Shown here piece after piece: positions 18,708 through 56,059 of a stretch of 64,000 nt of DNA. The notes below the pieces were generated by a model that saw only the letters and a list, made by a program, of their open reading frames with translations, made no database searches and was not told the origin of the DNA. Origin of the DNA: an uncultured Candidatus Obscuribacterales bacterium (lineage in GTDB: Bacteria; Cyanobacteriota; Vampirovibrionia; Obscuribacterales; Obscuribacteraceae); assembly GCA_964493595.1 (NCBI GenBank), contig CAZBOX010000002.1, forward strand, positions 2,003 through 66,002, read 5' to 3'. The stretch's first letter is position 1. Every line of letters begins with the position of its first letter. Position numbers and translations under genes: made by a program.

Positions 18708-18731
18708 GGCGAGCCCGGGATTGGGCTCGCC
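18708..18731 (-). other. Intercistronic 9-bp stem-loop
   Basis: GGCGAGCCC gggatt GGGCTCGCC. Confidence 0.45.
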
Positions 18732-18785
18732 TCCTGCTGATGGAGAACGTGGGTCAGAAGACCCGAGACTGGCGGACGCCGGCGC

Positions 18786-19370: not shown

Positions 19371-19483
19371 GGTGTCTTTCTCCTTTGGTGCCTCGGCGAT
19401 TGCGCCTGAGGCGGGTTTGGTGCGTTGAATGACGAGCCGAGCCGCAAGCACTCGCTGCAACTCGACAGGTGATATACGAGATG

Positions 19484-19519
19484 GAGGGAAGCCGAACTCT
19501 CGCAGAGCCGGCTTCCCTC
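19484..19519 (-). other. Intercistronic 11-bp perfect stem-loop
   Basis: GAGGGAAGCCG (19484-19494) pairs with CGGCTTCCCTC (19509-19519). Confidence 0.5.
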
Positions 19520-19550
19520 TCAGGCAGACGCGGACTGGCAGCCGGGCTGC

Positions 19551-20276: not shown

Positions 20277-20444
20277 ATTGCAATCTCCTGTTTTTCGCTT
20301 GTAGCGATGGGTTAGAGCCGAGGCGTTCTGGATGATCCAGATGACGCCCCGGCCGAACGAACCGGCCGCGAGGAATTCGCTGCCGGCTATGGATGATCGA
20401 TGTTCAGGCGCGCTTTGCGCACCTCAACCGTTGGGAAGCGGCTG

Positions 20445-21044
20445 TTACTCGGCGTCGACGCCGTAGCGCCCGCACAGAGCGAGCAGACCGCCGTCATAGC
20501 CCTGACCGATGGCGTCGAAGCGCCACTCGCCGTCCTTGCGGTAGACGGCGCCGAAGTCGAGGGCGGTGTTGGTCGAGGCTTCCTCCGAGATGTCGAAGCG
20601 GCAGAGCTCGGTGTTGTCCTCGGCGTTGACGACGCGGATGAAGGCGTTGGTCACCTGGCCGAAGGACTGACCGCGTTCCTTCGCCTCGTGGATGGTCACG
20701 GCGAAGACGATGCGCTGGACGTCGGCGCCGACCTTGGTGAGGTCGATTTTCAGCGACTCATCGTCGCCGTCGCCCTGACCGGTCAGGTTGTCGCCGGTGT
20801 GCTCGATGGAGCCGTCCTTGGTCTTGAGCTTGCCCTCGAACTTCTCCATTCCGTAGAACACGAAGTCCTGGTTCTGGTTGCGCACCTTGCCGTTGGCGCC
20901 CAGCACGAAAGCGGAGGCGTCCAGGTCGAAGGCCTTGCCGGATGTCGCGCGCGTGTCCCAGCCGAGACCGACGACGATCTGCTTGAGGCTGGGAGCTTGC
21001 TTGGTGAGAGAGATCTTCTCGCCCTTTTTCAGGGAAATCGGCAT
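20445..21044 (-). CDS. TerD-family protein (first gene of the array)
   Basis: [43 protein letters not shown] and KDGEWRF. AAGGAG RBS. Confidence 0.9.
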   Translation of the reverse strand: MPISLKKGEKISLTKQAPSLKQIVVGLGWDTRATSGKAFDLDASAFVLGANGKVRNQNQDFVFYGMEKFEGKLKTKDGSIEHTGDNLTGQGDGDDESLKIDLTKVGADVQRIVFAVTIHEAKERGQSFGQVTNAFIRVVNAEDNTELCRFDISEEASTNTALDFGAVYRKDGEWRFDAIGQGYDGGLLALCGRYGVDAE

Positions 21045-43557: not shown

Positions 43558-46197
43558 TTATTTGTCGTCCGGCTGCCTTGTCGCCGTATCCTTCTCTTCG
43601 TTGAGCTTCTTCTCGAAGCGCGCGAAGATGAAGGCCGCGCCTATGGAGACGATGCCGGCCACGATGAAGATGATCACACGCACGTACTGCTCCGCGCCCC
43701 GGAGATCCCAGAGCACGAGTTTGCCGAGCATCAGCGCGAATACCGCATGCGCGCTGTAGCGGAACACCTTGTCGTTGAGCTTGACGCCGATCGTGAGGAG
43801 CACGATCGCTTCCAGTGACCAGGCGACGGCCAGCCACTGCCAGGCGAGCAGATTGTAGCAGGCGATGGTCGTAAGGACGGTGCCTACAATTGCCGCTCCC
43901 ATCTGCACCAATTCAGCCTCGCGGTTGCCGAGCACCACTGAATCCAGCAGACCTTGCGGCCTGACCGCGTTTGCCACAGTCAGGATGCGGTAAGCGAAAC
44001 TGAGTGCATAGATGCCTGCCACTACAGGCAGTGTGGTGCCCCAGGTCCAGGCATCGTAGCCGAGCGCTAGAGATGCTGCCGCACCAAGGAAGCCCAGCGC
44101 GCCGAGTTGGCGAATCACCGTGTCCTTCAGCCAGAATCCGGCTGCCACGACAACCGCACTTTCAGCAATCAGCCAGACCGCTGTTTGTGCCGAATTGCCG
44201 ACGTGGAGCCCAGTGAGGATCCACATAATGGCAGCACCCACTACGCTGTACGCGTGGTAGAAATTGATATTCAGCACTTGCCCTTCGCCGGCATTGGCGC
44301 TGCGCCACTTGTACAGCGCGCTGGCGGCAAAGAAGATAGCGACGTTGGCCGCTGCTCCCAGTGCGCCGACCACCTCCCAGTGGAGAATGAGCGCGACGCC
44401 GCCGGTCGCCAGCAAGACCGCCGCAATCAGCTCGCCGATGCGCTCTTTGAAGGCGTAGGCGTGTGCCATGAAGGCCGCCGCTGAAAGCGCCCACCAGTAA
44501 CTCTGGTTGGAATTTGCGGCAAGTTCGAGCGGCATCCACCAGGCGACAATCGCCGCTGCACCAAGATAGAAGTTGCGGCCGAACTGTTTTTCTATGGCGT
44601 GCTGCGCGGGCTCGAATGCCTTGACGCGATAAGCGATTTCGCTCACCACGAAAGCGAAGAGCGCAGTCAGACCGGTGACCAGCTGGAAGCCGACACCGAA
44701 GACATCGCCCGAGATTAGGCGGGCCGCCGAAAGCAGAGCGACTGCAAAGGCAAAGGCGCGCAGCTCGATCATGCGGAAACGCAGACCGGCAATGACGAGT
44801 ACCGGCACTTCCAGGAGCCAGACCACAGAAACTGCATTGGGGCTGAGCCAGAGCGGAACAGCGGCAGTAGCCGCAGCCAGGCAGATCAACGTGGTGAGCG
44901 TGGTTGTGAACTCCAGCTTCTTTGCGCGTGCCACGTACGCGAAGACTCCGTAAGCGGCTGCGACGAAGAAGAGGAAGAGGTATCGCCATGCGGAGAATTC
45001 AGTACCCATCGCCAGAAGGTTCAGGGTGATGAATGCGCCGGCGTTGAGAAGAGAAGCGGTGACGGTGAAGCGGCGAGTGGCATCCGACTCCTCCGGCTGG
45101 CGAACTAGGAAATGCACCAGGTTGTACGCCAGCCAGTGGGCGGACAGAAAGGCGCCCGAGAGCAGCAAGCCTTGAGCGCCGACTACGCTGCCGGTGATCT
45201 GCGGCTGGGTGAAGAGCACGAAGGTGGCATATGAGCCGACCACGCCTACCAGGTAAACCAGGAACCAGCGCATGCGCACGATGACCAGCGCCAGACCAAT
45301 CACCATGAGCGCCGATGCCCCTACCGTGAAGGCAGTGACTGCGCTCAGCGAGAGCGTCACAAAGGCCAGGAGTGCGGAAAGAAGCGCGACCGTTTCGGAG
45401 CGCCGGTAAAGAGAATGGAGCATGCAGCCTGCGGCCATTGCCAGAAGGAGGCAGGAATCGAGCGCCACGTTGTCGATGAGTTTCACCGAGGCGATGTTTT
45501 GCATCGCGTAAACGGTGAAGTAACCGACTGCATAACCGCCTGCCACCAGCGCCAAGCCGAAGGGCTTGAAATTCATGCGCCGGTAAGCGAATTCGCCTCC
45601 AGCTACAAGCGCGGCTGCGCCGGTGAACCAGGAGAGGATTTTGACCAGCGGACCGACATGCTCGTAAGCGAGCATCAGACCGTAGCCCAGACCGACCACA
45701 AGCAGGATGACCCCGGTCCAGAGGTACCAGTATCGCCCGATGGATTGTTCGAGGTCGGATTTGATTCTTGCAGTTTTGGTTCGTTCCTCCGCGGCGCCAC
45801 CGTGGGCAGTGTCGCTGAGCGGCTCTGTTGCGCGGCTCTTCTTTGTCGAGGAGCTGCTGTAAAGCAGATTTCTTGCCACTCCGAAAGCAATGGCTACGGC
45901 GACACCGACCAGGAAATAGCCGCTGAAAAACCAGACGATTGCTCCAATTACGAGTGGCAAAAAGAGCGAATCGTCCGATCCTGAGGCTGCCTGATTGGTT
46001 GGTTCTGGCTGTTTTGCGCCGGGCGCTGCCGGTTGTGCCTCGTTGCCGGTTGTTTGTGATTGAGCAGCTGTTTGAGCCGTTGCCGTGCGACCGGCTCTCA
46101 GGTCTTCAACCGCTAGCTCGAGAGCCCTGATACGCGTTTCATAGCTTTTCAGGGTTTCGGGAAAATCGTCAGGGACGCGAAAAGAAGGATCTTCCAC
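43558..46197 (-). CDS. Large polytopic membrane protein (DUF2339-like: N-terminal coiled coil plus more than 20 TM)
   Basis: 879 aa. GTG start with an AAGGAG RBS. N-terminal SYETRIRALELAVEDLRAG helix, then continuous hydrophobic helices. Confidence 0.8.
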   Translation of the reverse strand: MEDPSFRVPDDFPETLKSYETRIRALELAVEDLRAGRTATAQTAAQSQTTGNEAQPAAPGAKQPEPTNQAASGSDDSLFLPLVIGAIVWFFSGYFLVGVAVAIAFGVARNLLYSSSSTKKSRATEPLSDTAHGGAAEERTKTARIKSDLEQSIGRYWYLWTGVILLVVGLGYGLMLAYEHVGPLVKILSWFTGAAALVAGGEFAYRRMNFKPFGLALVAGGYAVGYFTVYAMQNIASVKLIDNVALDSCLLLAMAAGCMLHSLYRRSETVALLSALLAFVTLSLSAVTAFTVGASALMVIGLALVIVRMRWFLVYLVGVVGSYATFVLFTQPQITGSVVGAQGLLLSGAFLSAHWLAYNLVHFLVRQPEESDATRRFTVTASLLNAGAFITLNLLAMGTEFSAWRYLFLFFVAAAYGVFAYVARAKKLEFTTTLTTLICLAAATAAVPLWLSPNAVSVVWLLEVPVLVIAGLRFRMIELRAFAFAVALLSAARLISGDVFGVGFQLVTGLTALFAFVVSEIAYRVKAFEPAQHAIEKQFGRNFYLGAAAIVAWWMPLELAANSNQSYWWALSAAAFMAHAYAFKERIGELIAAVLLATGGVALILHWEVVGALGAAANVAIFFAASALYKWRSANAGEGQVLNINFYHAYSVVGAAIMWILTGLHVGNSAQTAVWLIAESAVVVAAGFWLKDTVIRQLGALGFLGAAASLALGYDAWTWGTTLPVVAGIYALSFAYRILTVANAVRPQGLLDSVVLGNREAELVQMGAAIVGTVLTTIACYNLLAWQWLAVAWSLEAIVLLTIGVKLNDKVFRYSAHAVFALMLGKLVLWDLRGAEQYVRVIIFIVAGIVSIGAAFIFARFEKKLNEEKDTATRQPDDK

Positions 46198-46701
46198 GAT
46201 CTGATCTCCTTCAGGGAACTTTGATTGCCGGCCGGAGTTGGACGGCGGTGAATTCTTCCAGACCGGCTCTAATTCGCCAGGAATTTATCCCGGCTGCCGA
46301 GGTCTCAGAGCGCTTTGCACATGCAGAAGAGCTTGGTGGTATTTCCTCTGGGAAGAAAAAACGAACGGGTGAAGTCGATTTGATTTTGTCCAACGATGCG
46401 GGCTGAATTCAGTGCGTGCGACAAGCATCTACGTTGAAAATGCTTAAGGGTTCGTCCTCAATGAAAATCTGCACAGCTATTGGAAATGTGCTGTAGAAGC
46501 TGGCCGGCTTGTTATCCGGATGGTCTGTGAGCGGCCAGTAGGCGAAGTCTGCCTGTTGCCTGTTGATGCAGGTTAGGGAAATCTCAGTAGAACCCCGCTG
46601 CCAGAGGTTTGCGCATCTCGCGCCAAACTGGTCGGTCAAGACTCGGCTCCGGTAAGATCTGCTTGGAAAAGCAACAACTATAGAATATAAGAAAAATAGC
46701 A

Positions 46702-46743
46702 TCTAAAAATAGCAAGCGGAGGAGCTATGGCGCTCCCCCGCTT
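46702..46743 (-). terminator. Rho-independent terminator ending the pknG-to-glnH operon
   Basis: AAGCGGAGGAGC tatggc GCTCCCCCGCTT (one mismatch), followed on the minus strand by GCTATTTTTAGATGCTATTTTT. Confidence 0.6.
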
Positions 46744-46795
46744 GCAAAGTCAGGACTCAGTCATGCAGAAAGGGAATTCCGCGCCGACCGTTTGC

Positions 46796-47686
46796 TCAGT
46801 CGACATATGTTCCACGGGGCGGCTCCTGCGCACCCATGGCACCGAACCAGCGGTCGTAGATGCGCCGCCAGGTGCCGTCCGACTTCATCTGCACCAGCAC
46901 GGCATTGACGAAGCGAACGAGGTCCGCCTGGTCACGCGAGATGCCGATGCCATAGGGCTCGGACGTGAAGGCCGTGCCGACGACGCGAGCGAACGGGTCC
47001 TGGCGAGCCAGTCCCGCCAGAATCACGTCATCCGTGCTGATGGCGTCCACCTGCCGCATCTGGAAGAGGACCAGGCAGTCGGTGAACTCGGTGGTCTCGA
47101 CCAGAATCGCCTGGGGATTGGCGGCGACGATATTCTTGGCGCTGGTAGAGCCGCGCGGCGCGCAGACGCGACGTCCGGAGAGATCGGCGATGGACCTGGC
47201 CGTCGAGTCTCGGTGCACGAGAATCTTCTGGCCGGCCATGTAGTAGACCTCACTGAAGTTGATGTCGTTCTTGCGCTGGGCGTTGATGGTGAAGGTCGAG
47301 ATGACCATGTCCACGCGCCCTTGCTGGATCAGCGGAATGCGGTCCGCCGACGCCACCGCGACGAACTGGATGCGGCGCTCGTCACCGAAGATCGCCCTGG
47401 CCATGGCCTTGGCGATGTCGATGTCGAAGCCCTCCAGCTCGTTGGTGAGCGGGTTGAGATAGCCGATGCCGTACTTGTCCTGCGAAACCCCGACGATCAG
47501 GCGCCCGCGCTCCTGAATACGGCGCATGGTGCTGCCGTCCGGCATGGCTCCTGGGCGCGGCAGGCTAACCATGGGGCGCAGGCTGGCGGTCACATCGGGC
47601 GTCGCGGACGCGCTGGGGGAAACGGCGAGGAAAGCGGTGAGCGCGATGGCGCCCAGTGCCTTGAGCATGGTGTTGAAAGCTCTCAT
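46796..47686 (-). CDS. glnH: Family 3 solute-binding protein, GlnH-like (amino-acid binding)
   Basis: Signal peptide MRAFNTMLKALGAIALTAFLAVSPSASA. SBP_bac_3-like GFDIDIAKAMA and ISTFTINAQR. GGAGA RBS. The symbol is inferred from synteny with pknG. Confidence 0.8.
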   Translation of the reverse strand: MRAFNTMLKALGAIALTAFLAVSPSASATPDVTASLRPMVSLPRPGAMPDGSTMRRIQERGRLIVGVSQDKYGIGYLNPLTNELEGFDIDIAKAMARAIFGDERRIQFVAVASADRIPLIQQGRVDMVISTFTINAQRKNDINFSEVYYMAGQKILVHRDSTARSIADLSGRRVCAPRGSTSAKNIVAANPQAILVETTEFTDCLVLFQMRQVDAISTDDVILAGLARQDPFARVVGTAFTSEPYGIGISRDQADLVRFVNAVLVQMKSDGTWRRIYDRWFGAMGAQEPPRGTYVD

Positions 47687-47702
47687 CTCTTCTCTCCTGC
47701 GG

Positions 47703-49070
47703 TTAGACGCGGTATTCATTGATGCGGGGCGTCAGACCGAAATAGGTCAGCGCCGCCACGAGCATTGCGATCAGCACGAACGCCCAATCCAGAAAACGCA
47801 GGTTGCCCTCGGCGCTCGCGATGGAGGCGTCGAAGTTGGCTTGCGCTCGGCCGAGGTTGACGCTCAGAACTTCGGTGAAGTTGTCGAACGCCTGCTGTGC
47901 TTCGGTGGTGCCGTTGCCGAGAGCGAGATTGACTGCCTCCTGGCGACGACCGCCCTTGTCGAAGCTGCGGATGCGAGCATCCTGCTCCAGGTAGGAACGC
48001 AGCGCCGTGAGCGCAGTGACCACCTGTTGGCGCTCCGGTGAACCGGCCGGCGTAGCCGCCAGTTCGTTGGCGAAGAGTCCCTGGAAGGCGACATTGCCAC
48101 GCGACGCTTGGAAAATCATCTCCTGCGTCAGATCGGAAGGAGCAAGACGAGCGACCTTGTCCTTCATGCTCGTCTCATAGCGGGCGCCGGCGCCAAGCGC
48201 GATCAGATAGAGGCTCTGGTCTGTCTTGGTGTCATAGGCGGTGCCGCGTGCCGTCAGCCAGTTATAGGCAGACGCGAAGGACTGCTCACGAGCGGAGGAG
48301 AGATGACCCCCTGCCCAGCCCATGCTCACAACGCTGTAACCGGTCACGGCGACAACGAGCGCCGATGCGGCCACGAGAGGTGCGTTGAAAGTGCGCCGCA
48401 TGCGCTTGCTCAGGAAGAGCTGCATGTAGCAGAGCACGAGAAGCAGCGCCGCGCCGCCGCCGCCGATCAGAGCGAAGCGCATCATCGTTCCGCTCTTGAA
48501 GGAGGCGTACTCGCTGTCCAGCTGGCGGACGTTGAGCTGGTCGATCGACTGCGTGAGCGGCAGCATGGTGTCGTGCAGCATGACCGACGCCATGCGCAGG
48601 TAGGCGGCGCCCACCGGGTAACCCATGCGGTTGTTGGTGCGTGCCGATTCCACCATGCCTGTGTAGACCGTCACGTGGTTCATCAACTGTTCGATAGCGG
48701 TCTGCTCTTCGCGACCGAAGCTGATGTTCATGGCCGCCGAGGTGAGTTGCTCGCCCAGTTCGCGACGAACCGTTTCGTACCTCTGGCGGGCCGCTGCACC
48801 GGAGTCGGCGCCACCGGCCAGGAATTCCTGCGTGGCGAGCGCATCCATCTCCAGCAACTTGACGCGCACGGTCTGCGCCGTGACGATGCTGGGAACCGCG
48901 TCACGGGCGATGGTGTTGAGCGACGAACGTGCCGCGGTGACGCCCAGATAGCCGCCGATGGCAAAGCCGACGGCAAGCAGGAAGACGAGTGCCATGCCGA
49001 GGCGCAGCTTGCCGGGTGTGGTCGAGGTCAGCCCTCGGACTCCGCTGGCGGTGTTGAGAGTGGTTGTCAT
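47703..49070 (-). CDS. glnX: GlnX-like four-TM protein with two extracytoplasmic helical domains
   Basis: 455 aa. TM segments near residues 25-47, about 215-235, about 245-265 and the C-terminus, separated by helical regions. Assignment rests on topology plus glnH/pknG synteny only. Confidence 0.6.
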   Translation of the reverse strand: MTTTLNTASGVRGLTSTTPGKLRLGMALVFLLAVGFAIGGYLGVTAARSSLNTIARDAVPSIVTAQTVRVKLLEMDALATQEFLAGGADSGAAARQRYETVRRELGEQLTSAAMNISFGREEQTAIEQLMNHVTVYTGMVESARTNNRMGYPVGAAYLRMASVMLHDTMLPLTQSIDQLNVRQLDSEYASFKSGTMMRFALIGGGGAALLLVLCYMQLFLSKRMRRTFNAPLVAASALVVAVTGYSVVSMGWAGGHLSSAREQSFASAYNWLTARGTAYDTKTDQSLYLIALGAGARYETSMKDKVARLAPSDLTQEMIFQASRGNVAFQGLFANELAATPAGSPERQQVVTALTALRSYLEQDARIRSFDKGGRRQEAVNLALGNGTTEAQQAFDNFTEVLSVNLGRAQANFDASIASAEGNLRFLDWAFVLIAMLVAALTYFGLTPRINEYRV

Positions 49071-49089
49071 TCTAGATCCCTTCTCGCGG

Positions 49090-49752
49090 TCAGAGATTGA
49101 TGGAGGAGATGATGACGACGGTGAATTCGCCGATGCGAATCTTGTCGCCCACGGCAAGCTCGCGCTCTTCGCCCGAGCTCAGCGCCTTCACGACGCCGTC
49201 GCGTTCGACTTCGGTGCCGTTGGCGGAATCGAGGTCGCGGACGGTGACCTTGTCGGCATGCCGGGTGATCATCATCTGGCGGCGTGAGATGCTCTCGTCG
49301 CCGTCGATGGTCAGGCTCAGCACAGCCTTGTTGTTGGGACGACCGATCAGCGACTCCTCATCGAAGAGTGAGTGCTTGCGCGGGCGCCCGCCGTTGACGA
49401 TCACTTCCACATCGATGCGCGCGTTGCCGGACGGCACCACAGGCGGTGCGGCGACCGCGGGTGCGGGCGTGGACTGCGGCACCACCGGGTCGGCAGGAGG
49501 CACTTCGCCGCCCGTCCGGTTGACGAAGTCGTAGCCGCAGACCCCGCAGAACTGAGCGGTGCCGTCGCGGTGTTCACTGCACTTGGGGCACTGCTCGGCG
49601 GACGCGGAGGCGCCGGCGGCCGGCTGCGCTTGTCCCGCAGGCAGAGCGGAGGCGGGTGTGGAGGCGCCGCCGGCAATCTGAGAACCACAGTCGGAGCAAT
49701 AGTCGGCATCGACCGACTCATGCCCTTGCGGGCACTTGTGCGTTGCAGTCAT
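49090..49752 (-). CDS. FHA-domain protein with two N-terminal zinc ribbons
   Basis: CPQGHESVDADYCSDCG and CPKCSEHRDGTAQFCGVCG, then a Pro/Ala linker. FHA core LIGRPNN...ISRRQMMI...VRDLDSANGTEV. Confidence 0.85.
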   Translation of the reverse strand: MTATHKCPQGHESVDADYCSDCGSQIAGGASTPASALPAGQAQPAAGASASAEQCPKCSEHRDGTAQFCGVCGYDFVNRTGGEVPPADPVVPQSTPAPAVAAPPVVPSGNARIDVEVIVNGGRPRKHSLFDEESLIGRPNNKAVLSLTIDGDESISRRQMMITRHADKVTVRDLDSANGTEVERDGVVKALSSGEERELAVGDKIRIGEFTVVIISSINL

Positions 49753-49796
49753 TGTAATGACCTTTCCAGTTGAATTGGGCTCGATTGATGCGGCTC

Positions 49797-51095
49797 TTAC
49801 TTGACGCGCTTGGTGCGGGTGCTGGCCGTGTCGAGGTTGACGACGTCACCCTTGTCGGCGCCCTTGATGATCTTCACGGTGCCCTTGTCGGGGTCGACCT
49901 TGATGATCTTGTCGATGCGCCGCGTCGCTTCTTCGTTGCCGGTGGCGACCGCCAGTTCGCGCGCCTTGCCCAGGGCTTTTGTGGCCTTGTCCTCGTCGCC
50001 CGCTTGCAGCGCGGCCACGCCTTCCTGGATGTTGCGCGCCAGGTCGGCCTGCCCGGTATAGTTGGCGACCTTGGGGTTGATCACCGTCGACTTCTTGTCG
50101 TCGCCGGTCCATTCGGCCGTGATCTGACCGCCCTCCATGAGCTTGGTCTCGACCTCGGTGCCGTTCTGGTTCTCGACCAGCGACAGGCGCGCCACCAGCT
50201 TGGCCGGACCGTCGACCTGACCGACCGCTTCGGGCGCCAGTTCCACGACCACCATGTAGTCCCGCACTTCCTCGCCCCAGGCGCCGGTGTCGATGCGAGC
50301 CAGGCGCGGGGTGGCGCCGGGCTGCACCTTGCCGGTGAGGTCGAGCAGCTGCGGAGTCATCTGCTTGATCGAGGAGACCTTGGCGCCGACAGGCGTCCAG
50401 ACCTGCAGCATGACGTTGCTGCGAGCCAGGCTCTGGGTGCGCTCGACCACCGCCTTGAAGTCGGCGATCAGCTCTTCCGGCTTCTGGAAGCCGTCCACCG
50501 AGCCGCCCAGATAGTTCTGGATGGTGCGCAGTTCTTCGGGCTTGTAGCCGGCGCCGACGCCGCGCCCTTCCACCTCGAACTGACCGACGCAGTTCTTCAG
50601 CTCACGCTCGAGGGTGGGCACGTCCTCGCCCTCGTTCTTGCCGTCCGTGAGGAAGGTGAGGATGTTGATGGCGCCGGGCACCTTGGCGAACTGAACCCGC
50701 GCGCCGCTGAGCCAGCGCGCGAAGTAGGTGCCGCCGCCGTTGTTCATCTCGGAGAGCAACTTGAGGGCGGCACGCTTGTTGACGGCGTTGGCGATGGTGA
50801 CCGGGACGACGAAGTCGGCGCTGTCACCGCCACGCACGACGAAGAAGTAGGTATTGCCGTCCTCCGGCAAGTTCTCGACGGCCTTGAGCACCGCCTGCTT
50901 GGCGAAACGCCACTTCTCGCCGTCCATGGAGCCGGAGGCGTCGATGACGAAGCCGAGCGTGCGCTTCTGCGCCACGACAGCTCCCGCCGCGCCCGGCGAA
51001 TTGGACTTGATCGAGACCACGGCCACGACCGAGTTGGCGCCGGCGGTCAGGTACTTGTTGTGGGAGATGCTGCCTTCGAAGCTGGACTGGGACAT
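49797..51095 (-). CDS. vWA-domain protein (TerY-like, kinase/phosphatase-associated)
   Basis: Start MSQSSFEGS at 51095. MIDAS motif FVIDASGSMDG. The maximal ORF extends to 51176. Confidence 0.85.
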   Translation of the reverse strand: MSQSSFEGSISHNKYLTAGANSVVAVVSIKSNSPGAAGAVVAQKRTLGFVIDASGSMDGEKWRFAKQAVLKAVENLPEDGNTYFFVVRGGDSADFVVPVTIANAVNKRAALKLLSEMNNGGGTYFARWLSGARVQFAKVPGAINILTFLTDGKNEGEDVPTLERELKNCVGQFEVEGRGVGAGYKPEELRTIQNYLGGSVDGFQKPEELIADFKAVVERTQSLARSNVMLQVWTPVGAKVSSIKQMTPQLLDLTGKVQPGATPRLARIDTGAWGEEVRDYMVVVELAPEAVGQVDGPAKLVARLSLVENQNGTEVETKLMEGGQITAEWTGDDKKSTVINPKVANYTGQADLARNIQEGVAALQAGDEDKATKALGKARELAVATGNEEATRRIDKIIKVDPDKGTVKIIKGADKGDVVNLDTASTRTKRVK

Positions 51096-51159
51096 GAGAT
51101 TTCCTTTCGAGAGTTCAGTGGTTGCACTGGAGAGTTGAAGGGATGAACATCTGGCGCTG

Positions 51160-52182
51160 TCACTGCAAGTAGGCAACGACGGCGGTGATGTTGTCGTGAC
51201 CGCCAGCCTCGCGGGCGAACGTGACCAGCTTGCGTGCTGCAGTCAGGGCGTCCGCCTGGGCCGTCTGGGCGATGAGAGATCTGAGGTGTTCCTCGTTCTT
51301 GAGGTAATTCCACAGACCATCCGAGCACACCACCAGCGTGCCTTTGCCGGTGATGTTGAGCGTGCGCATCTCGGGCGCTTCGACGCCCGGATCGGTGCCG
51401 TCATCGGCGGCACCGAGAGAGCGCGTGATGGCGTGAGAAAGCTTGTTCTTCTCCGCCTCCTCGCGAGACATTCCGCCGGCGATCGCCTCGTTGAGCCACG
51501 AGTGATCGTGGGTCAGCTGCTGGCAGCCGCTGTCCGAGAGCCAGTAGGCTCGGCTGTCGCCGATCCATCCCACCGTGACGCGTCTGCCCTGCACAAGCGC
51601 CGCCACAAAAGTGGATTGAGCCGGCAGAATCATGCGCCCTTCGCGGTCGACGTTGTTGACGTCGAAAGGCGTCTTGCAGATGGCTTCCTGACACGCGTCG
51701 GCAACCTCCTTGAAGAGGGCGTCGACATCGCTTCTGTCCGCTCCGCTGATGAGCATGTCGCGCGCCAGTTCGGCTGCGGCTTTCGAGCCCTTCATCGGAT
51801 TTTGCGAGTTGGACATGCCGTCGCAGACCACCAGAGCAAGGCAGCCGGGCTTCTCGCCGAGCGCCATGAAGTCCTGGTTTTCCTTGTACTTCATGCCGAT
51901 GTCGCTGACGCCCGCCACCTTGGCCGAGAGGGCCTGGTGGAAGTGGTCGCGCGGCGCCATCTTGCGCTTGGTGCCGCAATTGGTGCAGTGACCCTCCGCA
52001 TCGATGCAGCCCGGCCCTGCGTGACAGCCCGGACATTCGATCAGCGGGTCGACCGCCTTGGCGGCGCCACCGGATGCGGTATCGCCTGTGGAATGCTTGG
52101 CAGCATCCGTCAGCGGGGTTCCGCACCCTTCGCAGTAGGAGGCGTCGTCGTCGTTCGGTTCATTGCAAACAGAACATTGCAC
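51160..52182 (-). CDS. PP2C-family Ser/Thr phosphatase with two N-terminal zinc ribbons
   Basis: GTG start at 52182 (GGAGA RBS 8 nt upstream). CSVCNEPNDDDASYCEGCG and CPGCHAGPGCIDAEGHCTNCG. PP2C core GVSDIGMKYKENQDF, VVCDGMSNS and GGHDNITAVV. The longer ORF to 52521 overlaps the kinase. Confidence 0.85.
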   Translation of the reverse strand: MQCSVCNEPNDDDASYCEGCGTPLTDAAKHSTGDTASGGAAKAVDPLIECPGCHAGPGCIDAEGHCTNCGTKRKMAPRDHFHQALSAKVAGVSDIGMKYKENQDFMALGEKPGCLALVVCDGMSNSQNPMKGSKAAAELARDMLISGADRSDVDALFKEVADACQEAICKTPFDVNNVDREGRMILPAQSTFVAALVQGRRVTVGWIGDSRAYWLSDSGCQQLTHDHSWLNEAIAGGMSREEAEKNKLSHAITRSLGAADDGTDPGVEAPEMRTLNITGKGTLVVCSDGLWNYLKNEEHLRSLIAQTAQADALTAARKLVTFAREAGGHDNITAVVAYLQ

Positions 52183-52240
52183 GATATTGTTCTCCGTCAG
52201 TAGGTGTTCGTTCTTGGTTTCGGCTCTGAGCGCGAGCGCA

Positions 52241-54595
52241 TCAGAACGTCGTCCGCGGACGCACCTGATTGGCCAGATCGACAAGCCGGATGCGCTCCGC
52301 CTCGTCGTGCGAAAGACGCGCCAGGTCGCGGTAAGCCGCTTCCAGACGGGTGCGCACGTCCTTCTCCTGCACCTCCTCGTCGAGCAGCTTGAGGCTGCCC
52401 TTGCCCGAGACGATGAACGCCAGGGCTGCATTGAACAGATCCCTGGCCATGACGACCTTCTCGGCGCCGGTGAGCACCAGTGCCTCGATTGTCTGCGCGG
52501 CGCGGTTGAGCTGATCCGCACCGGACGCCTGGCCGTTGTTTTCGATCAGAACTCGAGCCAGAGTCTTCTGCGCATCGAAGTAGAGGCTGCTCGTCTGAGG
52601 CACCAGGGACAGTGCCGCAACCGCCTCGTCGATCTTGCCCGAGGCGGCAAGCAGGCGAGCCTGAGCGAAGACCGCGGTGGTGTAGCCGTGGTCGACGCGC
52701 GACACCGCCTGATAGAGGTGAATGGCGTCGGCGAAGTCCTTCTTCAGCTCGCTGGCGATGGCGATCGCCAGACGCGGCGCCAGTTCGCCCGGCACTTCGT
52801 CGAAGCAGGTCTCGAAGGCGCTCTGAGCGCTGTCGTACTGCCCCTGGGCCAGGAAGGACATGCCCCGGTACCAGATGACGCGCCAGTCGAAGCCGTCCTG
52901 CGCCTCGACGTCCTTGAGAGCCTTCTCCGCGTCGCCGTACTGACCCTGTTCGATCAGGTTCTTGGCCAGAGCCAGCAGCGCCTCGATCGAGTCGGGGTAC
53001 TGCTCGAGCGTGCGCCGGATGACGCCTTCCTGACGCTTCAGGTCGTTGCCGCCCATGCCGTTCAGGATGACCACCGCCGCCGGATCCTGCGTGTCCATGC
53101 GCAGGCGTGGCAGGCTGTAGATGTCTACGGTGCCCTGCTTGGCGGCGTCCCGTTCGACCATGATATCGGCGCTGAAGCGGTTGCTGGTGCCCGGGCAGGG
53201 ATTGCCCGAGTCGATCGCGACCGCGTCGCGCATGACGCCGAGCAGCTGCTCGTCCATCTCCTCGCAGTTCTGGAAACGCATGTTCGGATTCTGATGCGTC
53301 GCCTTGAGCAGGAAGCGATAGAACGAGTCGTACTTGGCGTAGACCGGCTCCTCGTCCGGGGTGCGCAGCTGGTGCTCGTGGCTGGTCTGGAAGCCGCGGA
53401 ACTCGGTGCACAGAACCGCCATGGTGCGCGCCAGGGTATAGATGTCGGACGCGGGCGACGGTCCCTTGGTGGCCAGCTCCGGTGCCGCATAGCCGACCGT
53501 GCTGTAGATGTCGCCGTCGGTGGCGTTGAAGCGAGTCACACCGCCCAGGTCGATGACCTTGATGTCGTCGACCTCCAGCATCACGTTGTCCGGCTTGAAG
53601 TCGTTGTAGATGAGACCGTTGCGGTGCATGTAGCTGAACGCCCCCAGCACGCAGTGCATGTAGGCGAGCACTTCGGCGACGGGCAGCGGTCCGCGCTCCT
53701 TGCGCAGGCTCTTGAGCGTGCGGCCGCCCACGTATTCCATCACCGTGTATGCAGCCGAGCCCCGCGCGTTGGCGTGCTGCACGCAGGTGTAGACGCCGAC
53801 GATGTTGGCGTGCTTCACTTCGGCGAGGAATTGCCGCTCGGCGACAGCCGCCTCCGCCAGTGCCTTGTCGTCCTGGTTGACCAGTCCCTTGAGCACGACG
53901 TAGCGCTGCAGGGTGACATCCTTGGCCAGGTAGATCCAGCCCATGCCACCGAATGCGATGCAGCCCAGCACTTCGTACTGGCCGGCGACGAGCTCGCCCT
54001 TTTCCAGTCCGGGGATGAAGTTGTATTTGGTCTGGCACTTCGGGCAGAAACCCTTCTCGCGCTTGTCGAGCACGTTTCCGCACGGGTCGCCCGACTTGAG
54101 GTAGCCGGCGCAGACGCGCTTGGGCGCCGGCACCTTGGCCTCGGGCATCAGGGACTTGAGCGGGTCGCTCTTGGGCACTTCCGGAACCGCGATCAGCCCC
54201 AGTCCGAGCTGTCGATGCGCCGCCGTCACGCGCGTGCCGCGCGTGACACGGCTGGTGGTGGTCGACGAAATGCCGGTCAGCTGGGTGCCCGATGTCTTCG
54301 CCGAGTCTCGGCGACTGGAGCTGCGGCTGCGGTGCGTATGACCGCTCATCAGCGTACTGTTGCTCGGCGAAGCAGCGGCGGCATTGCCGCAGGTGTTGCA
54401 GAAGCCGTCTTCGTAGAGCCCGGGGCAGTTGCTGTCACTGCACTTGGGACCGGCTGTCGCGCCGGCCGACTGGGTTGCGGGTCGGGCAGCGGCCTGGGTC
54501 GCAGGCGCAGCCTGGAAGGCGGTTCCGCAGGTGTCGCAGTAACCATCCTGGATCGTCCCTGCGCAAGAGGGAACGTTGCACTTGTGTCCGTTCAT
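52241..54595 (-). CDS. pknG: PknG-type Ser/Thr kinase (zinc ribbons, kinase domain, C-terminal TPR)
   Basis: My recollection of M. tuberculosis PknG runs collinear with this protein: VAGQYEVLGCIAFGGMGWIYLAKD, VVLKGLV, AERQFLAEV, VMEYVGGRTLK, LPVAEVLAY, GLIYNDFKPDNVML, VIDLGGV, WRVIWYRG, FDEVPGELAPRLAIA and the C-terminal LVDLANQVRPRTTF. Confidence 0.9.
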   Translation of the reverse strand: MNGHKCNVPSCAGTIQDGYCDTCGTAFQAAPATQAAARPATQSAGATAGPKCSDSNCPGLYEDGFCNTCGNAAAASPSNSTLMSGHTHRSRSSSRRDSAKTSGTQLTGISSTTTSRVTRGTRVTAAHRQLGLGLIAVPEVPKSDPLKSLMPEAKVPAPKRVCAGYLKSGDPCGNVLDKREKGFCPKCQTKYNFIPGLEKGELVAGQYEVLGCIAFGGMGWIYLAKDVTLQRYVVLKGLVNQDDKALAEAAVAERQFLAEVKHANIVGVYTCVQHANARGSAAYTVMEYVGGRTLKSLRKERGPLPVAEVLAYMHCVLGAFSYMHRNGLIYNDFKPDNVMLEVDDIKVIDLGGVTRFNATDGDIYSTVGYAAPELATKGPSPASDIYTLARTMAVLCTEFRGFQTSHEHQLRTPDEEPVYAKYDSFYRFLLKATHQNPNMRFQNCEEMDEQLLGVMRDAVAIDSGNPCPGTSNRFSADIMVERDAAKQGTVDIYSLPRLRMDTQDPAAVVILNGMGGNDLKRQEGVIRRTLEQYPDSIEALLALAKNLIEQGQYGDAEKALKDVEAQDGFDWRVIWYRGMSFLAQGQYDSAQSAFETCFDEVPGELAPRLAIAIASELKKDFADAIHLYQAVSRVDHGYTTAVFAQARLLAASGKIDEAVAALSLVPQTSSLYFDAQKTLARVLIENNGQASGADQLNRAAQTIEALVLTGAEKVVMARDLFNAALAFIVSGKGSLKLLDEEVQEKDVRTRLEAAYRDLARLSHDEAERIRLVDLANQVRPRTTF

Positions 54596-54653
54596 CTGAA
54601 TCCTTTCAGGAGACTTCAGGTTGTTTCACGATTGGTGAGGATGATGCCGTCAG

Positions 54654-55817
54654 TCAACCCAGGACCTTGTCCTGGTATTGCTTGACCAGCGCTCGCGCTT
54701 TCGCCATCGGCGTCGGACGCGCATACAAGAGCTGTGTGGTCTCGGCGAAAAGCTTCGACACTTCCGGGTCTTCGCCCAGCCCTTCGGCAACGGCTTTGAC
54801 CTTCAGCGCCTCCATCAGTCCGCGCATGTCACGACGCTCTTTCACCAGCGCTTCATTGGCCTGGTAGGCCGATTCAGCCGACGAGGTGCGATTGACCGTC
54901 TGCGCGTGCCAGTTGGAGAGTCCGACGGCGGCTGCCTGATACTTGCCTTCGGCGACCGTCGCCTTCAGGCGCTGCAGCCATGATTCGAGCTGCAAGATCA
55001 CCTTGCCGTCGAGCGGCATGGTGAGCTGGTCTTCGTGTTCGATGGTGAGCTTCTCACGACGCTCGGCGACAGCCTGCAACGATTTCTCGTGCGTGGTTTT
55101 CAGATGCGCCAGGGCTTGCTCGGCCTCCGACATCTGGCTGGCGACCTGTTGTTTGAGCGCCTTGAGCTGACCCAGTCGCGTGCGGCACGCCTCGATGACC
55201 GGGGAAACATTGGCTTCGAAGTCGTTGGCGGCAGCCAGCGGGTCGCTGAGCACGCTGCCGGCGACCGTGTTCAGAGAAGATTCTGCCTGAGCCAGTTCCG
55301 AAACCGGAATGCCCAGAGCTGCCGCCTCCTTCTTCAGCCCGTCCAATTCGCCCCTGAGCTTGGAGACGCGCTCATTGAGCGGTCCCCAGGTCGAGCGAAT
55401 CTTGAAGACCAGCGTGCGAGCGTCATCGAAAGCCTTCGTCATTGCCTCGAGAAGCCGCTCGGCTGTGACCGATTTCGAAACCTCCGCCGCTGAGAGCAGT
55501 CCGCGCTCCTCGAGGGGAACCGTGACAGGCGGCAGCTTCACTTCATCGAGAAGAGCGGTCACTTCAGCGAGCTTGGCTTCTCGCCCGATGCGCGGCAGAT
55601 TGGCGAGAATGTCCTTCGCCTGCGTCACCTGCCTGCTCATCATTTGAAGCATGCTGAAGAGCTCTTCGAAAGGCGGCAGAACCGCCTCGCACTGCTTTCT
55701 GGTCGTCCCCTCCAGTGATTGGAACGTGGGACTGCCGAGCAGTTTGTATGTGCTCAAGTCGGTCAGCTCCAGCATGTTGCGCGTGCAGGTAGCAATCTGA
55801 CCTTCGAGCGTTTTCAC
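54654..55817 (-). CDS. Coiled-coil protein, paralog of 15246..17165, first gene of the pknG operon
   Basis: Aligns by eye with the Ter-block protein: GTTRKQCEAVLPPFEELF vs GETDTKCHEAFTTVEKLW, NLPRIG vs NLPRWS, PLEERGLLSAA vs PAHERGLLGSA, GLSNWHAQ vs GLDSWNRE. GTG 55817 has a GAGG RBS and matches the paralog N-terminus. The maximal ORF runs to a TTG at 55958 that lacks an RBS. Confidence 0.7.
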   Translation of the reverse strand: MKTLEGQIATCTRNMLELTDLSTYKLLGSPTFQSLEGTTRKQCEAVLPPFEELFSMLQMMSRQVTQAKDILANLPRIGREAKLAEVTALLDEVKLPPVTVPLEERGLLSAAEVSKSVTAERLLEAMTKAFDDARTLVFKIRSTWGPLNERVSKLRGELDGLKKEAAALGIPVSELAQAESSLNTVAGSVLSDPLAAANDFEANVSPVIEACRTRLGQLKALKQQVASQMSEAEQALAHLKTTHEKSLQAVAERREKLTIEHEDQLTMPLDGKVILQLESWLQRLKATVAEGKYQAAAVGLSNWHAQTVNRTSSAESAYQANEALVKERRDMRGLMEALKVKAVAEGLGEDPEVSKLFAETTQLLYARPTPMAKARALVKQYQDKVLG

Positions 55818-55938
55818 TTTCGCCTCAGCTGCATCTGCGCTGAGTGTCTTGGTTGAGATTTGGGCCAATTCGACCTCCGTATCGTTGTTACGCAGGAGAT
55901 GCCTTGCGGCATTATTTGTCCACTTCTGCAACTCAGCT

Positions 55939-56059
55939 GTGACTGGTCCAGTTCGCAAAGAAGTGACCGGTCCAGTTTTGGCAAGAACTGCATGGAGAGA
56001 CTTCGCAACAATGCTCTAACATGACTGGTCCAGTTGACGAAAAAAGGAGCGGTCCAGTT
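55939..56059 (-). promoter_or_regulatory. Array of four palindrome-containing sites (ACTGG-T-CCAGT), candidate operators
   Basis: Copies 1 and 3 are perfect 5-1-5 palindromes (GACTGGTCCAGTT). Copies 2 and 4 (GACCGGTCCAGTT, GAGCGGTCCAGTT) keep one half-site. Confidence 0.4.

Follow-up and report, generated by a model that had tools for sequence, protein, structure and literature searches.

In mycobacteria and corynebacteria, the glnX-glnH-pknG operon acts on GarA/OdhI, and its kinase, PknG, recruits FHA substrates via phosphorylated N-terminal threonines (PMC6069109, PMC8546545). The residues through which GlnH contacts its ligand have been named (PMC6069109). In Sulfolobus, the vWA protein ArnB and its FHA partner ArnA form a nutrient-dependent pair, with phosphothreonine in the C-terminal bundle and a zinc-finger contact in the unphosphorylated state (PMC6509490, PMC12852372). 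The vWA, β-sandwich and four-helix-bundle build of ArnB/vWA2 is also that of the solved structure 4FX5, together with a MIDAS site (PMC6509490). A further combination of vWA, PP2C and kinase is the TerY-P triad, whose kinases end in a zinc ribbon or an OB fold (PMC11090510) and which sits on islands with restriction or DNA-processing modules (PMC4978471, PMC11090510).

We analysed a 64,000-nucleotide stretch of DNA from an uncultured Candidatus Obscuribacterales bacterium (hereafter the window), in which seven genes, all on the minus strand, occupy positions 46796-55868. Judged from sequence comparisons, they form a single conserved PknG-family cassette for Ser/Thr phospho-signalling. Read 5' to 3' on that strand, they encode a helical protein, a PknG-type kinase, a PP2C phosphatase, a vWA protein, an FHA protein, a GlnX-like protein and a GlnH-like solute-binding protein (SBP), the order given by the original prediction, and all seven ORFs were found in place. 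With four starts (those of the PP2C, GlnX, SBP and helical protein genes) refined from the DNA, the gaps measure 17-61 nt, in agreement with the 16-64 nt given there, the successive values being 58, 58, 61, 44, 19 and 17 nt from the helical protein gene to the SBP gene. The terminator predicted after glnH was likewise recovered: a hairpin at 46745-46712 (minus strand), with a 14-bp stem containing 10 G-C pairs and the tail TATTTTT, lies about 50 nt past the SBP stop codon. It is the sole minus-strand terminator-like site in the pattern scan of positions 46000-56600, none being found within the cluster. Since terminator-like sites as a whole are no more numerous in this region than in shuffled sequences, the argument rests on the strength and position of this one. 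In the 600 nt preceding the first gene there is a weak σ70-like match at 56310-56283 (minus strand, 9 of 12 positions), the single promoter-like match in the region and a count again not above shuffles, which we tentatively regard as a candidate promoter. The common strand, the short gaps and the single strong terminator at the end predict one transcription unit, the terminator and promoter calls being pattern matches and not transcription data.

The block of helical protein, kinase, PP2C, vWA and FHA genes recurs in about 50 independent loci, which places the gene set far beyond chance; most of them have a GlnX gene next to the block, and many have an SBP gene there. Its hosts span at least five phyla, with Actinomycetota, Cyanobacteria, Acidobacteriota, Planctomycetota and Alphaproteobacteria all represented, and include Kribbella, Planobispora, Actinoplanes, Phycicoccus, Micropruina, Acidimicrobiia, Calothrix, Dulcicalothrix, Iningainema and Tumidithrix, as well as metagenome-assembled genomes of Terriglobia, Planctomycetia, Rhodospirillales and Xanthobacteraceae. 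The order in Actinomycetota is glnX-glnH-helical-pknG-PP2C-vWA-FHA. GlnX or the SBP was not detected nearby in Micropruina, locus L008 and other loci, so the sensor may be optional or encoded elsewhere. The original prediction saw here two architectures joined locally, a view replaced by that of a single conserved set. It had also envisaged that the arrangement might prove common and already characterised; common it is, and no account of it was found in the searchable literature, to which the cassette, as a multi-phylum unit, is apparently new.

The kinase gene (52241-54595, minus strand) encodes, from N to C terminus, two four-cysteine zinc ribbons, an S/T/R-rich linker, a rubredoxin-like module, a kinase domain and a PknG-type TPR (Pfam PknG_rubred 1.3e-13, Pkinase 3e-31 and PknG_TPR 1.7e-62). 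Using phmmer, residues 129-784 matched M. tuberculosis PknG (2PZI) at 422 bits, and the alignment shows intact catalytic motifs of the PknG type (VVLKGL, YNDFKPDN and IDLG). The N-terminal ribbons and the Thr-rich linker are kept across phyla. The PknG-type assignment of the original prediction is borne out by this end-to-end match. In a neighbour-joining tree, the window kinase belongs to a separate non-actinobacterial clade that leaves M. tuberculosis PknG outside in 100/100 bootstraps. The latter falls among the actinobacterial cassette kinases, with which it is monophyletic in 20/100 replicates (weak internal support), and strict orthology of the window kinase to actinobacterial PknG is not shown by these sequences. 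Because the cassette spans at least five phyla, actinobacterial loci included, the three-gene mycobacterial operon looks trimmed rather than independent; the operon of mycobacteria and corynebacteria would most simply be a reduced relative of the cassette acting on GarA/OdhI, a reading that rests on a neighbour-joining tree with weak internal support.

The adjacent PP2C gene (51160-52182, minus strand) starts at GTG 52182 behind a GGAG site, and not inside the kinase gene, giving a 340-amino-acid protein equal in length to its homologue in locus L001. An N-terminal double zinc ribbon precedes the phosphatase domain (Pfam DZR 1e-6, PP2C_2 4e-16, PP2C 3.7e-12), and the metal-binding motifs NQD, DGMS, SDGLW and DNIT are present in the translation. 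The match to the NCBIfam Stp1/IreP-type model (2e-37) stays under its cutoff.

At the other end of the cassette, the GlnX-type and GlnH-type calls of the original prediction were borne out. The sixth gene (47703-49070, minus strand; start ATG 49070) encodes a membrane protein with four hydrophobic segments that scores 316 bits against NF058618, the NCBIfam "GlnX family signal transduction membrane protein" (cutoff 250), and 106 bits against the equivalog NF041460, below its threshold of 780; it also matches Pfam 4HB_MCP_1 weakly. Its homologues elsewhere match Pfam PF28326 (Sensor_actino) and pass the NF058618 cutoff in every phylum tested. The seventh gene (46796-47686, minus strand; start ATG 47686) encodes a GlnH-like amino-acid-binding SBP of 296 amino acids (SBP_bac_3 2e-31), predicted to be secreted via a signal peptide without a lipobox cysteine. 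Its top match among solved structures is M. tuberculosis GlnH (6H1U/6H20/6H2T, E 1.6e-68). By alignment, four of the seven GlnH ligand contacts are identical (Arg147, Thr162, Arg169 and Asp250) and three are altered (Ser164 to Thr, Trp232 to Phe and Lys161 to Ser), one of the changes being conservative. In one relative, the SBP position is taken by an NMT1-type binding protein instead, which fits an exchangeable input module.

The centre of the cassette resembles the archaeal ArnB/ArnA switch, as far as sequence and architecture can tell. The vWA gene (49797-51098, minus strand) starts at ATG 51098, where the translated ORF has its first Met and where the homologue starts align, and encodes a tripartite protein of 433 amino acids (Pfam VWA and VWA_3_C). 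It matches 4FX5 (Caci_2163) over its full length (E 2.3e-73 as a single sequence, 9.6e-123 as a profile), from which, together with the literature, its β-sandwich and helical bundle are taken. ArnB (8S05_A) is its second-best solved structure (1.4e-12), with a profile match spanning the vWA domain only. The MIDAS residues (DxSGSM...T...D) and the Thr/Ser-rich C-terminal tail LDTASTRTKRVK are invariant (alignment A1); the ST.T motif, invariant among six aligned cassette vWA sequences, occurs in the last 45 residues of 55/150 family representatives. The neighbouring gene (49090-49752, minus strand) encodes a 220-amino-acid protein whose two zinc ribbons are connected by a Pro/Ala-rich linker to an FHA domain (Pfam DZR, Zn_Ribbon_1 and FHA 3e-10), a layout shared with ArnA, which joins a zinc finger to an FHA domain. 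In alignment A3, the two ribbons show no variation, nor do the pThr-binding residues (G-R, S and N-G). ArnA (8S05_C, 5A8I) gave the top single-sequence PDB matches, aligned over the full length, but the domain itself is no nearer to ArnA than to FhaA or GarA (profile values of 4e-12 for FhaA, 3e-9 for ArnA and 2e-8 for GarA/OdhI), so the likeness to ArnA rests on architecture and partner. In the related loci, an ArnB-like vWA gene invariably accompanies the FHA gene, and natural vWA-FHA fusions occur in the family (P0200 and P0288).

The first gene (54654-55868, minus strand) starts at TTG 55868 behind a GGAGG site and encodes an all-helical protein of 404 amino acids, a length that agrees with its 404-aa homologues. 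It had been called a coiled coil; an AlphaFold2 model (mean pLDDT 87) does contain long helical hairpins, and no known family could be put to the name, since neither Pfam, NCBIfam nor the PDB gave a sequence match and a Foldseek search of the model against the PDB gave no significant one. A homologue lies directly upstream of the kinase gene in essentially all related loci, actinobacterial ones included.

Taken together, these features suggest, with a probability of about 0.6, a sensor-gated phospho-switch acting on the ArnB/ArnA-like pair, with a PP2C reset and the helical protein as a partner. The secreted GlnH-like protein would capture a small ligand from outside the cell (probably an amino acid, which may be an acidic one) and report to GlnX, a putative four-helix-bundle membrane protein, which by analogy with Mycobacterium and Corynebacterium may activate the cytoplasmic kinase via its TPR domain. 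The kinase would then phosphorylate threonines in its own S/T-rich N-terminal linker, in the helical bundle and tail of the vWA protein, or in both. Binding of these phosphothreonines by the FHA domain could tighten an initially loose vWA-FHA complex, as described for Sulfolobus ArnB-ArnA. Its domain and constant co-occurrence suggest that the zinc-ribbon PP2C resets the switch and, more speculatively, all three ribbon-bearing proteins (kinase, phosphatase and FHA protein) may dock on the vWA protein as a hub through their zinc ribbons. The helical protein would be an obligate partner, as scaffold or effector.

An alternative is a GarA/OdhI-like pathway in which the FHA protein, as a direct substrate of the kinase and a metabolic regulator, binds and inhibits central-metabolism enzymes and the vWA and helical proteins are accessory. 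The homology of the sensor-kinase half to GlnH-GlnX-PknG, the retained S/T-rich linker of the window kinase and the FHA profile match to GarA/OdhI all speak for it. However, where GarA/OdhI have a short N-terminal phospho-acceptor segment, the window protein has its two zinc ribbons, and Pfam and alignment A3 agree with the original prediction that it is not GarA-like; it reaches 25 bits against the OdhI equivalog (cutoff 200). The invariable company of the ArnB-like vWA gene, fusions included, also argues against this pathway. Moreover, GarA acts on targets bound up with the OdhA/KGD architecture of actinobacteria, which is not known from the non-actinobacterial hosts. We consider this alternative unlikely.

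The original prediction suggested another reading, in which amino-acid sensing by PknG-GlnX-GlnH is joined to a TerY-P triad and could gate a TerY/vWA-based response, taken here as stress or defence of the Ter/tellurite type linked to the Ter cluster of the window. A vWA, PP2C and kinase triad does exist in the cassette, and the full Ter cluster that had been recognized in the window is there (about 7.6-21.0 kb, minus strand, as the cassette), with four TerD, TerC, PRTase_2/TRSP, StiP/PELOTA and a C-C lyase; some 26 kb and unrelated genes separate the two. The vWA protein is nevertheless of the ArnB/4FX5 type, unlike the stand-alone vWA of TerY, and without similarity to the DxSxS protein of the Ter cluster, and the kinase ends in a PknG TPR where TerY-P kinases have a zinc ribbon or OB fold. 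Restriction and DNA-processing modules are absent at the window cassette, and TerD, TerC, PRTase and StiP are absent within ±10 kb at all of the 89 related loci (0/89). PADLOC returned no TerY-P-type match, the presence of TerY-P models in its library being unconfirmed. A coupling of this kind therefore seems quite improbable, the links between cassette and Ter genes being indirect and the tellurite/TerY-P tie weak. Two observations leave some weight to a loose connection with Ter-type stress genes. One is a paralogue of the helical protein (639 amino acids; 15246-17165, minus strand), encoded outside the operon between TerD and TerC, which shares with it 27% identity over 319 aa (BLASTP, E 1e-20) and the motif VP.(E)ERGLL, matches the profile of the helical family at 1e-52 and its members from other phyla at 1e-11 to 7e-32, and is a fixed cluster member in relatives (L090 and L091 have the same TerD-(625/642 aa)-TerC-PRTase-StiP-lyase-ATP-grasp layout). 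The other is TelA (PF05816), whose gene immediately precedes that of the vWA protein in three alphaproteobacterial cassettes; the helical protein itself is unrelated to TelA (hhalign probability 0.4%).

A phage-defence or conflict system built on a kinase/phosphatase/vWA module, either TerY-P-like or of the vWA-centred type of multicellular bacteria, would accord with generic PADLOC matches (e.g. PD-T4-6, mad6), with a cassette GC3 of 0.72-0.88 against about 0.54-0.57 in flanking genes and with the frequency of the cassette in filamentous cyanobacteria and actinomycetes, which are enriched for vWA-based conflict systems (PMC7159879), but is very hard to credit, as those matches are confined to the kinase domain, stronger for unrelated neighbouring kinases and lacking for the vWA, FHA, GlnX, SBP and helical proteins, nuclease, NTPase, effector and mobile-element genes are absent from the cassette and none recurs in its flanks, the cassette takes its input from a solute-binding sensor in the periplasm, and the kinase phylogeny largely mirrors the phyla, unlike that of rapidly exchanged defence islands.

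Seven open reading frames lie head to tail on the minus strand from 46796 to about 55900, as the original prediction had proposed. In order of transcription, with families from Pfam and NCBIfam and starts set by junction reading and homologue comparison, they encode a 404-aa helical protein (gene 1, 54654-55868, TTG start at 55868), a PknG-family kinase (52241-54595, ATG 54595), a 340-aa PP2C phosphatase (51160-52182, GTG 52182), a 433-aa vWA protein (49797-51098, ATG 51098), a zinc-ribbon FHA protein (49090-49752, ATG 49752), a GlnX-family membrane protein (47703-49070, ATG 49070) and a GlnH-like solute-binding protein, SBP (46796-47686, ATG 47686). The intergenic gaps measure 58, 58, 61, 44, 19 and 17 nt. 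The terminator predicted after the SBP gene was recovered as a 14-bp G+C-rich hairpin followed by a T run (46745-46712), the sole minus-strand terminator-like site in 46000-56600, and one promoter-like match in the same region falls within the 600-nt gap upstream of gene 1. Since both signals are pattern matches whose counts in the region do not rise above those of shuffled sequences, co-transcription is predicted only as likely.

The linked genes are conserved as a group, their catalytic sites are intact, and each half of the group is homologous to a system already studied. We put the probability that the seven genes form one co-functional cassette at about 0.9. As judged from sequence, the sensor-kinase half belongs to the PknG/GlnX/GlnH family and the vWA/FHA half matches the architecture that defines ArnB/ArnA.

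Related loci were collected from the contigs of kinase homologues and from a scan of species-representative genomes with the vWA alignment, and further ones by tblastn with the seven window proteins and a gene-1 profile search. The block gene 1-kinase-PP2C-vWA-FHA is essentially invariant in about 50 loci. The exact seven-gene order of the window recurs in close metagenomic relatives (L001-L003), and Planobispora has the same order with the FHA gene undetected by tblastn. Heterocystous and other cyanobacteria (Calothrix, Dulcicalothrix, Iningainema, Richelia) carry the block and GlnX with no SBP; in Tumidithrix, GlnX was undetected by tblastn. A Terriglobia metagenome-assembled genome has the block with GlnX undetected, and one from Planctomycetia has GlnX and the block without a detectable FHA gene. 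Three alphaproteobacterial loci are permuted, reading (TelA)-vWA-FHA-GlnX-gene 1-kinase-PP2C. Many Actinomycetota, including about ten Kribbella species, Actinoplanes, Phycicoccus, Marmoricola, Pseudonocardiales and Acidimicrobiia, show the order GlnX-SBP-gene 1-kinase-PP2C-vWA-FHA, which adds four genes to the classical glnX-glnH-pknG order. Among the matches listed, the nearest species-representative genomes stand at 42% (vWA) to about 46% (kinase) identity. A variant cassette at L088 (10001-16771) has a kinase with PknG_TPR and without the rubredoxin module, a fifth gene (278 aa) without a Pfam FHA match, and no GlnX gene nearby.

The first system for comparison is GlnH-GlnX-PknG-GarA/OdhI of Mycobacterium and Corynebacterium (PMC6069109, PMC9769921, PMC8546545), with which the cassette shares a homologous rubredoxin-kinase-TPR kinase, a GlnX-family transducer of four transmembrane segments and a four-helix bundle, and a GlnH-like binding protein, all three in one putative operon with an FHA protein as candidate phospho-reader. 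Unlike glnX-glnH-pknG, the window cassette places the kinase first and the sensor last, and it adds four conserved genes, for the helical protein, the PP2C, the ArnB-like vWA protein and the zinc-ribbon FHA protein.

The kinase had been called PknG-type, and its build bears this out: Pfam finds the rubredoxin-like module (PknG_rubred, 1.3e-13), a Hanks kinase domain (Pkinase, 3e-31) and the C-terminal PknG-type TPR region (PknG_TPR, 1.7e-62). Its alignment with M. tuberculosis PknG (2PZI) starts at the rubredoxin module and runs through the final residue of the TPR region, at 422 bits and about 40% identity. The PknG-type catalytic motifs are kept, and the first cysteine pair in the alignment reads C-x8-C instead of CxxC. 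Ahead of the rubredoxin module, the N-terminus holds two 4-Cys ribbons (C..C.G.I.DGYC..CG) and an S/T/R-rich linker, which are common to the cassette kinases of all phyla. M. tuberculosis PknG is not known to have such N-terminal ribbons, which would set the cassette kinase apart from it.

Orthology to actinobacterial PknG did not survive the phylogeny. In a neighbour-joining tree with 100 bootstraps and one canonical PknG, that of M. tuberculosis, the non-actinobacterial cassette kinases are monophyletic (100/100), as is the window kinase's own five-member group (100/100). M. tuberculosis PknG always falls outside the non-actinobacterial clade, among the actinobacterial cassette kinases (44-47% identity), and pairs with Planobispora in 53/100 bootstraps; the deeper actinobacterial branching is unsettled in this tree. 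We class the window kinase, by its sequence, as a member of the PknG family and not as a strict orthologue.

The membrane protein was correctly placed as GlnX-like: it scores 316 bits against the GlnX family model NF058618 (cutoff 250), and 106 bits against the strict equivalog NF041460, below its cutoff of 780. The cassette GlnX proteins of Actinomycetota, Cyanobacteria and Alphaproteobacteria likewise pass the former and miss the latter, and as those of Actinomycetota reach only 142-152 bits against the cutoff of 780, the equivalog model has no discriminating power here.

The top solved match of the SBP (Pfam SBP_bac_3) is M. tuberculosis GlnH (E = 1.6e-68). When the ligand contacts of GlnH (PMC6069109) were mapped onto the alignment, Arg147, Thr162, Arg169 and Asp250 proved to be kept, with Ser164 replaced by Thr, Lys161 by Ser and the side-chain contact Trp232 by Phe, the last of which would be expected to change specificity. 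On the strength of the GlnH match and these contacts, the SBP is predicted to be an amino-acid-type binding protein that retains the carboxylate-binding Arg. It differs from GlnH also in having a plain signal peptide without a lipobox cysteine. In one related locus whose kinase is 57% identical (L004), an NMT1-family binding protein (16913-17980) stands in place of the SBP_bac_3 gene downstream of GlnX and is followed by further binding-protein and ABC genes, a swap which suggests that the ligand-sensing module is exchangeable.

The phosphatase carries a double zinc ribbon and keeps its metal-binding motifs. The vWA protein (Pfam VWA and VWA_3_C) is homologous over its full length to Caci_2163 of Catenulispora acidiphila, PDB 4FX5 (E = 2.3e-73 with a single sequence, 9.6e-123 with a profile), and the second-best solved structure is ArnB of Sulfolobus (8S05_A, 1.4e-12), matched over the vWA domain only. 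The 4FX5 structure has the ArnB/vWA2 build of vWA domain, beta-sandwich and four-helix bundle, with an intact MIDAS site (Hoffmann et al., PMC6509490). Given the full-length homology and this fold comparison, the cassette protein is predicted to be tripartite, of the ArnB type, with an intact MIDAS. Six aligned cassette sequences show no variation at the MIDAS residues or in a tail of the form LD..ST(R/K)T.R. At E <= 1e-30 the family comprises 231 clusters, in a set of 1.84 billion representatives at 50% identity; 141 of 150 family representatives have DxSxS, and 55/150 have ST.T within the last 45 residues.

The FHA protein has two zinc ribbons, both invariant, a linker rich in Pro and Ala, and an FHA domain that keeps the G-R, S and N-G phosphothreonine-binding residues. 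As a lead, the same layout of double zinc ribbon, Pro-rich linker and FHA domain occurs in FraH of Anabaena, and no FraH is known from such a cassette. The original prediction held the protein not to be GarA-like, and we agree: besides the two ribbons and the Pro-rich linker, it scores 25 bits against an OdhI equivalog cutoff of 200, and its layout is not the short N-terminal phospho-acceptor segment plus FHA domain of a GarA/OdhI-type substrate. GarA may have a homologue in another part of the genome. The best hits of a single-sequence PDB search, aligned over the whole length, are entries for ArnA (8S05_C, 5A8I). In the profile search the FHA domain is about equally close to FhaA (4e-12), ArnA (3e-9) and GarA/OdhI (2e-8), so that the likeness to ArnA is architectural. 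The FHA gene adjoins the vWA gene in most related loci, and natural vWA-FHA fusions account for 2 of the 231 vWA-family clusters, represented by P0200 (650 aa) and P0288 (567 aa). Other representatives of the vWA family bear N-terminal extensions of 200-480 residues without a Pfam match, which may be fusions or over-long gene calls.

The second system for comparison is ArnA-ArnB, the module that represses motility in Sulfolobus acidocaldarius, where ArnC/ArnD are the kinases and PP2A is the phosphatase (PMC6509490, PMC12852372, PMC5007285). In both, neighbouring genes encode a zinc-finger FHA protein and a tripartite vWA protein with intact MIDAS (by prediction in the cassette), partnered by a Hanks-type kinase and a phosphatase in what would be a nutrient-linked switch. 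The solved structures that match the cassette FHA and vWA proteins best include those of ArnA and ArnB, and 4FX5, which was compared with ArnB in PMC6509490, is itself a member of the cassette vWA family. However, sequence similarity is remote, with the ArnB match limited to the vWA domain; the cassette kinase and phosphatase lie in the same putative operon, and the phosphatase is a PP2C, not a PP2A; the FHA protein has two ribbons, whereas ArnA has one RanBP2-type finger; the cassette adds a membrane sensor (GlnX and SBP) and a helical partner; and no archaellum or other obvious target lies near it.

Taken together, these likenesses point to a mechanism in which the SBP/GlnX pair would gate the kinase through its TPR domain, as has been proposed for the gating of PknG by GlnH/GlnX in mycobacteria and corynebacteria (PMC6069109, PMC9769921, PMC8546545). 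The kinase would place phosphates on threonines of its N-terminal linker, of the vWA protein's C-terminal bundle and tail, or of both; the one piece of evidence here on vWA phosphorylation and phospho-dependent FHA binding is the conserved Thr/Ser tail. The FHA protein would then read the phospho-marks and tighten its complex with the vWA protein in the ArnA-ArnB style (PMC6509490, PMC12852372), and the PP2C would remove them. More speculatively, the zinc ribbons of the kinase, the phosphatase and the FHA reader might dock on the vWA protein as a hub; in 8S05, the beta-sandwich and C-terminal domain of ArnB are bound by the zinc finger of ArnA (PMC12852372). Gene 1 might, equally speculatively, act as a scaffold or effector. 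For this specific vWA/FHA switch mechanism we would offer even odds.

A broader joint reading is tentative, and we consider it rather doubtful. It holds that the cassette represents the ancestral, complete form of PknG signalling, common to several bacterial phyla; that its core is a vWA-FHA phospho-switch homologous to archaeal ArnB/ArnA; that a single docking site on the vWA protein is contested by the zinc ribbons of the kinase, the phosphatase and the FHA reader; that the gene-1 family couples the switch to envelope or ion-stress machinery; and that the mycobacterial GlnX-GlnH-PknG-GarA pathway is a stripped-down offshoot.

Gene 1 has no family match in Pfam or NCBIfam, and a sequence search of the PDB found nothing. 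Its structural model is all-helical and confident (pLDDT 87), with helices of 49-64 residues, and Foldseek against the PDB returned generic long-helix matches only (best E 0.16, TM about 0.2). A relationship to TelA was considered and rejected (hhalign of alignments A2 and A4, probability 0.4%). The relative of gene 1 in the window lies in the Ter cluster, whose presence the original prediction had noted and which is complete on the minus strand at 7595-21044 (about 7.6-21 kb), 26 kb from the cassette with unrelated genes between. Its order is TerD, a 241-aa protein, three TerD, a 639-aa helical protein, TerC, a small membrane ORF, PRTase_2/TRSP, StiP/PELOTA, a C-C bond lyase and probably an ATP-grasp gene, and this order is kept in two relatives (L090 and L091) at 53-83% identity.

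The 639-aa helical protein (15246-17165, minus strand), between TerD and TerC, is a paralogue of gene 1 (27% identity over 319 aa, E = 1e-20; profile E = 1e-52). It has no Pfam family, has 20 close homologues in a word-indexed search and is a fixed member of the Ter cluster in relatives; its matches to cyanobacterial gene-1 proteins (up to 7e-32) are stronger than that to the window's gene 1. If this paralogy reflects function, the gene-1 family would be a new component for Ter stress systems. The 241-aa protein (19551-20276, minus strand) contains DTSAS, a MIDAS-like motif of the DxSxS form. This protein matches nothing in Pfam or PADLOC, shows no similarity to the cassette vWA protein, and may be a divergent TerY-type vWA protein. 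The L091 relative, a 305-kb contig (NODE_66_length_305154, ERZ795105), is syntenic with the window over about 7.6-28 kb, from the Ter cluster to an inorganic pyrophosphatase, and has a 242-aa gene at the matching position; the cassette may be absent from the corresponding place there.

The original prediction had also labelled the vWA, PP2C and kinase genes as a TerY-P triad, which we assessed with the definition of PMC11090510 and PMC4978471. The likeness is that a vWA protein, a PP2C and a Ser/Thr kinase occur together, with zinc ribbons on signalling proteins. The vWA protein, however, is not TerY-like, being a 433-aa predicted tripartite homologue of 4FX5 and unlike the DxSxS protein of the window's own Ter cluster. 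The PP2C is present, but the kinase carries its zinc ribbons at the N-terminus and ends in the PknG TPR region, whereas TerY-P kinases end in a zinc ribbon or OB fold (PMC11090510). The cassette also differs from TerY-P in having no restriction, DNA-processing or secretion module, in its added FHA, GlnX, SBP and helical genes, and in being conserved along phyla, not island-borne. No TerD, TerC, PRTase or StiP gene was found within 10 kb on either side of the cassette in 89 loci, nor any nuclease, helicase or DNA-processing neighbour in the related loci. PADLOC gave generic kinase-domain and PP2C matches only for the seven proteins; the TerY-P coverage of its library is unconfirmed, and since the Ter-cluster DxSxS protein has no PADLOC match either, the search is no test in either direction. 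The TerY-P label is thus not supported. Two facts leave room for a looser link between cassette and Ter systems: gene 1 has its paralogue in the Ter cluster, and in three alphaproteobacterial cassettes the gene directly upstream of vWA encodes TelA (PF05816; L089, 5151-6329; L052, 2743-4314; L048, 3-803).

An operon with the same four domain types (vWA, kinase, FHA and PP2C), DRA0331-DRA0334 of Deinococcus radiodurans, has been proposed as a self-contained push-pull phospho-switch (bioRxiv 10.64898/2026.01.23.701218). Its kinase, unlike that of the cassette, is a transmembrane STPK that lacks both the PknG TPR and the rubredoxin domain, its PP2C carries its own FHA domain, and no GlnX/SBP sensor is described. 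Compared by domain make-up, the two appear analogous in domain logic and built of different proteins. A further lead is the threonine-phosphorylation pathway PpkA-PppA-Fha1 of the Pseudomonas aeruginosa H1-T6SS, likewise analogous and built of different proteins, where periplasmic sensor proteins gate a Hanks kinase bearing a vWA domain, together with a PP2C and an FHA reader; in contrast, the cassette has no T6SS genes and its vWA protein would be separate and cytoplasmic.

A full-text literature search, with subscription journals outside its coverage, found no description of the cassette. The accessible part of Lisa et al. reports PknG homologues in Calothrix and Ktedonobacter, their neighbours undiscussed there, and Bhattacharyya et al. 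treat the three-gene operon only. PknG is a virulence factor and drug target of M. tuberculosis and a control point in industrial Corynebacterium; how GlnX activates it, which substrates it has besides GarA and which phosphatase is its partner are open questions. In culturable carriers such as Kribbella, Planobispora and Calothrix, the cassette supplies the PknG family with candidate partners: a PP2C of its own, a vWA protein resembling ArnB, an FHA reader with zinc ribbons and a novel helical protein. It would also represent a bacterial counterpart of the ArnA/ArnB switch of archaea, for which the downstream mechanism is still described as enigmatic (PMC12852372), and gives genomic context to the orphan structural-genomics entry 4FX5.

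Around the cassette, an 879-aa DUF2339 membrane protein (43558-46197, minus strand) is encoded downstream of the terminator and preceded by a 97-aa ORF without a family match; neither has conserved adjacency to the cassette in the related loci. No tRNA genes, tmRNA genes or Rfam families were found in the window. Two more Hanks-type Ser/Thr kinases are encoded on the minus strand (56468-59098 and 38386-40401); the former has a TPR region at its C-terminus, and its gene immediately precedes the cassette on that strand. Kinase genes also adjoin the cassette in two related loci (L003 and L007), and the extra kinases are not conserved partners. Cassette genes have a GC content of 0.59-0.64 and a GC3 of 0.72-0.88, and the Ter cluster (8000-21000) has a GC3 of 0.84-0.95, against lower GC3 values in nearby genes (0.54 for 56468-59098, 0.53 for 38386-40401 and 0.57 for 46409-46702); the high GC3 of cassette and Ter cluster could reflect acquisition from elsewhere or codon bias.
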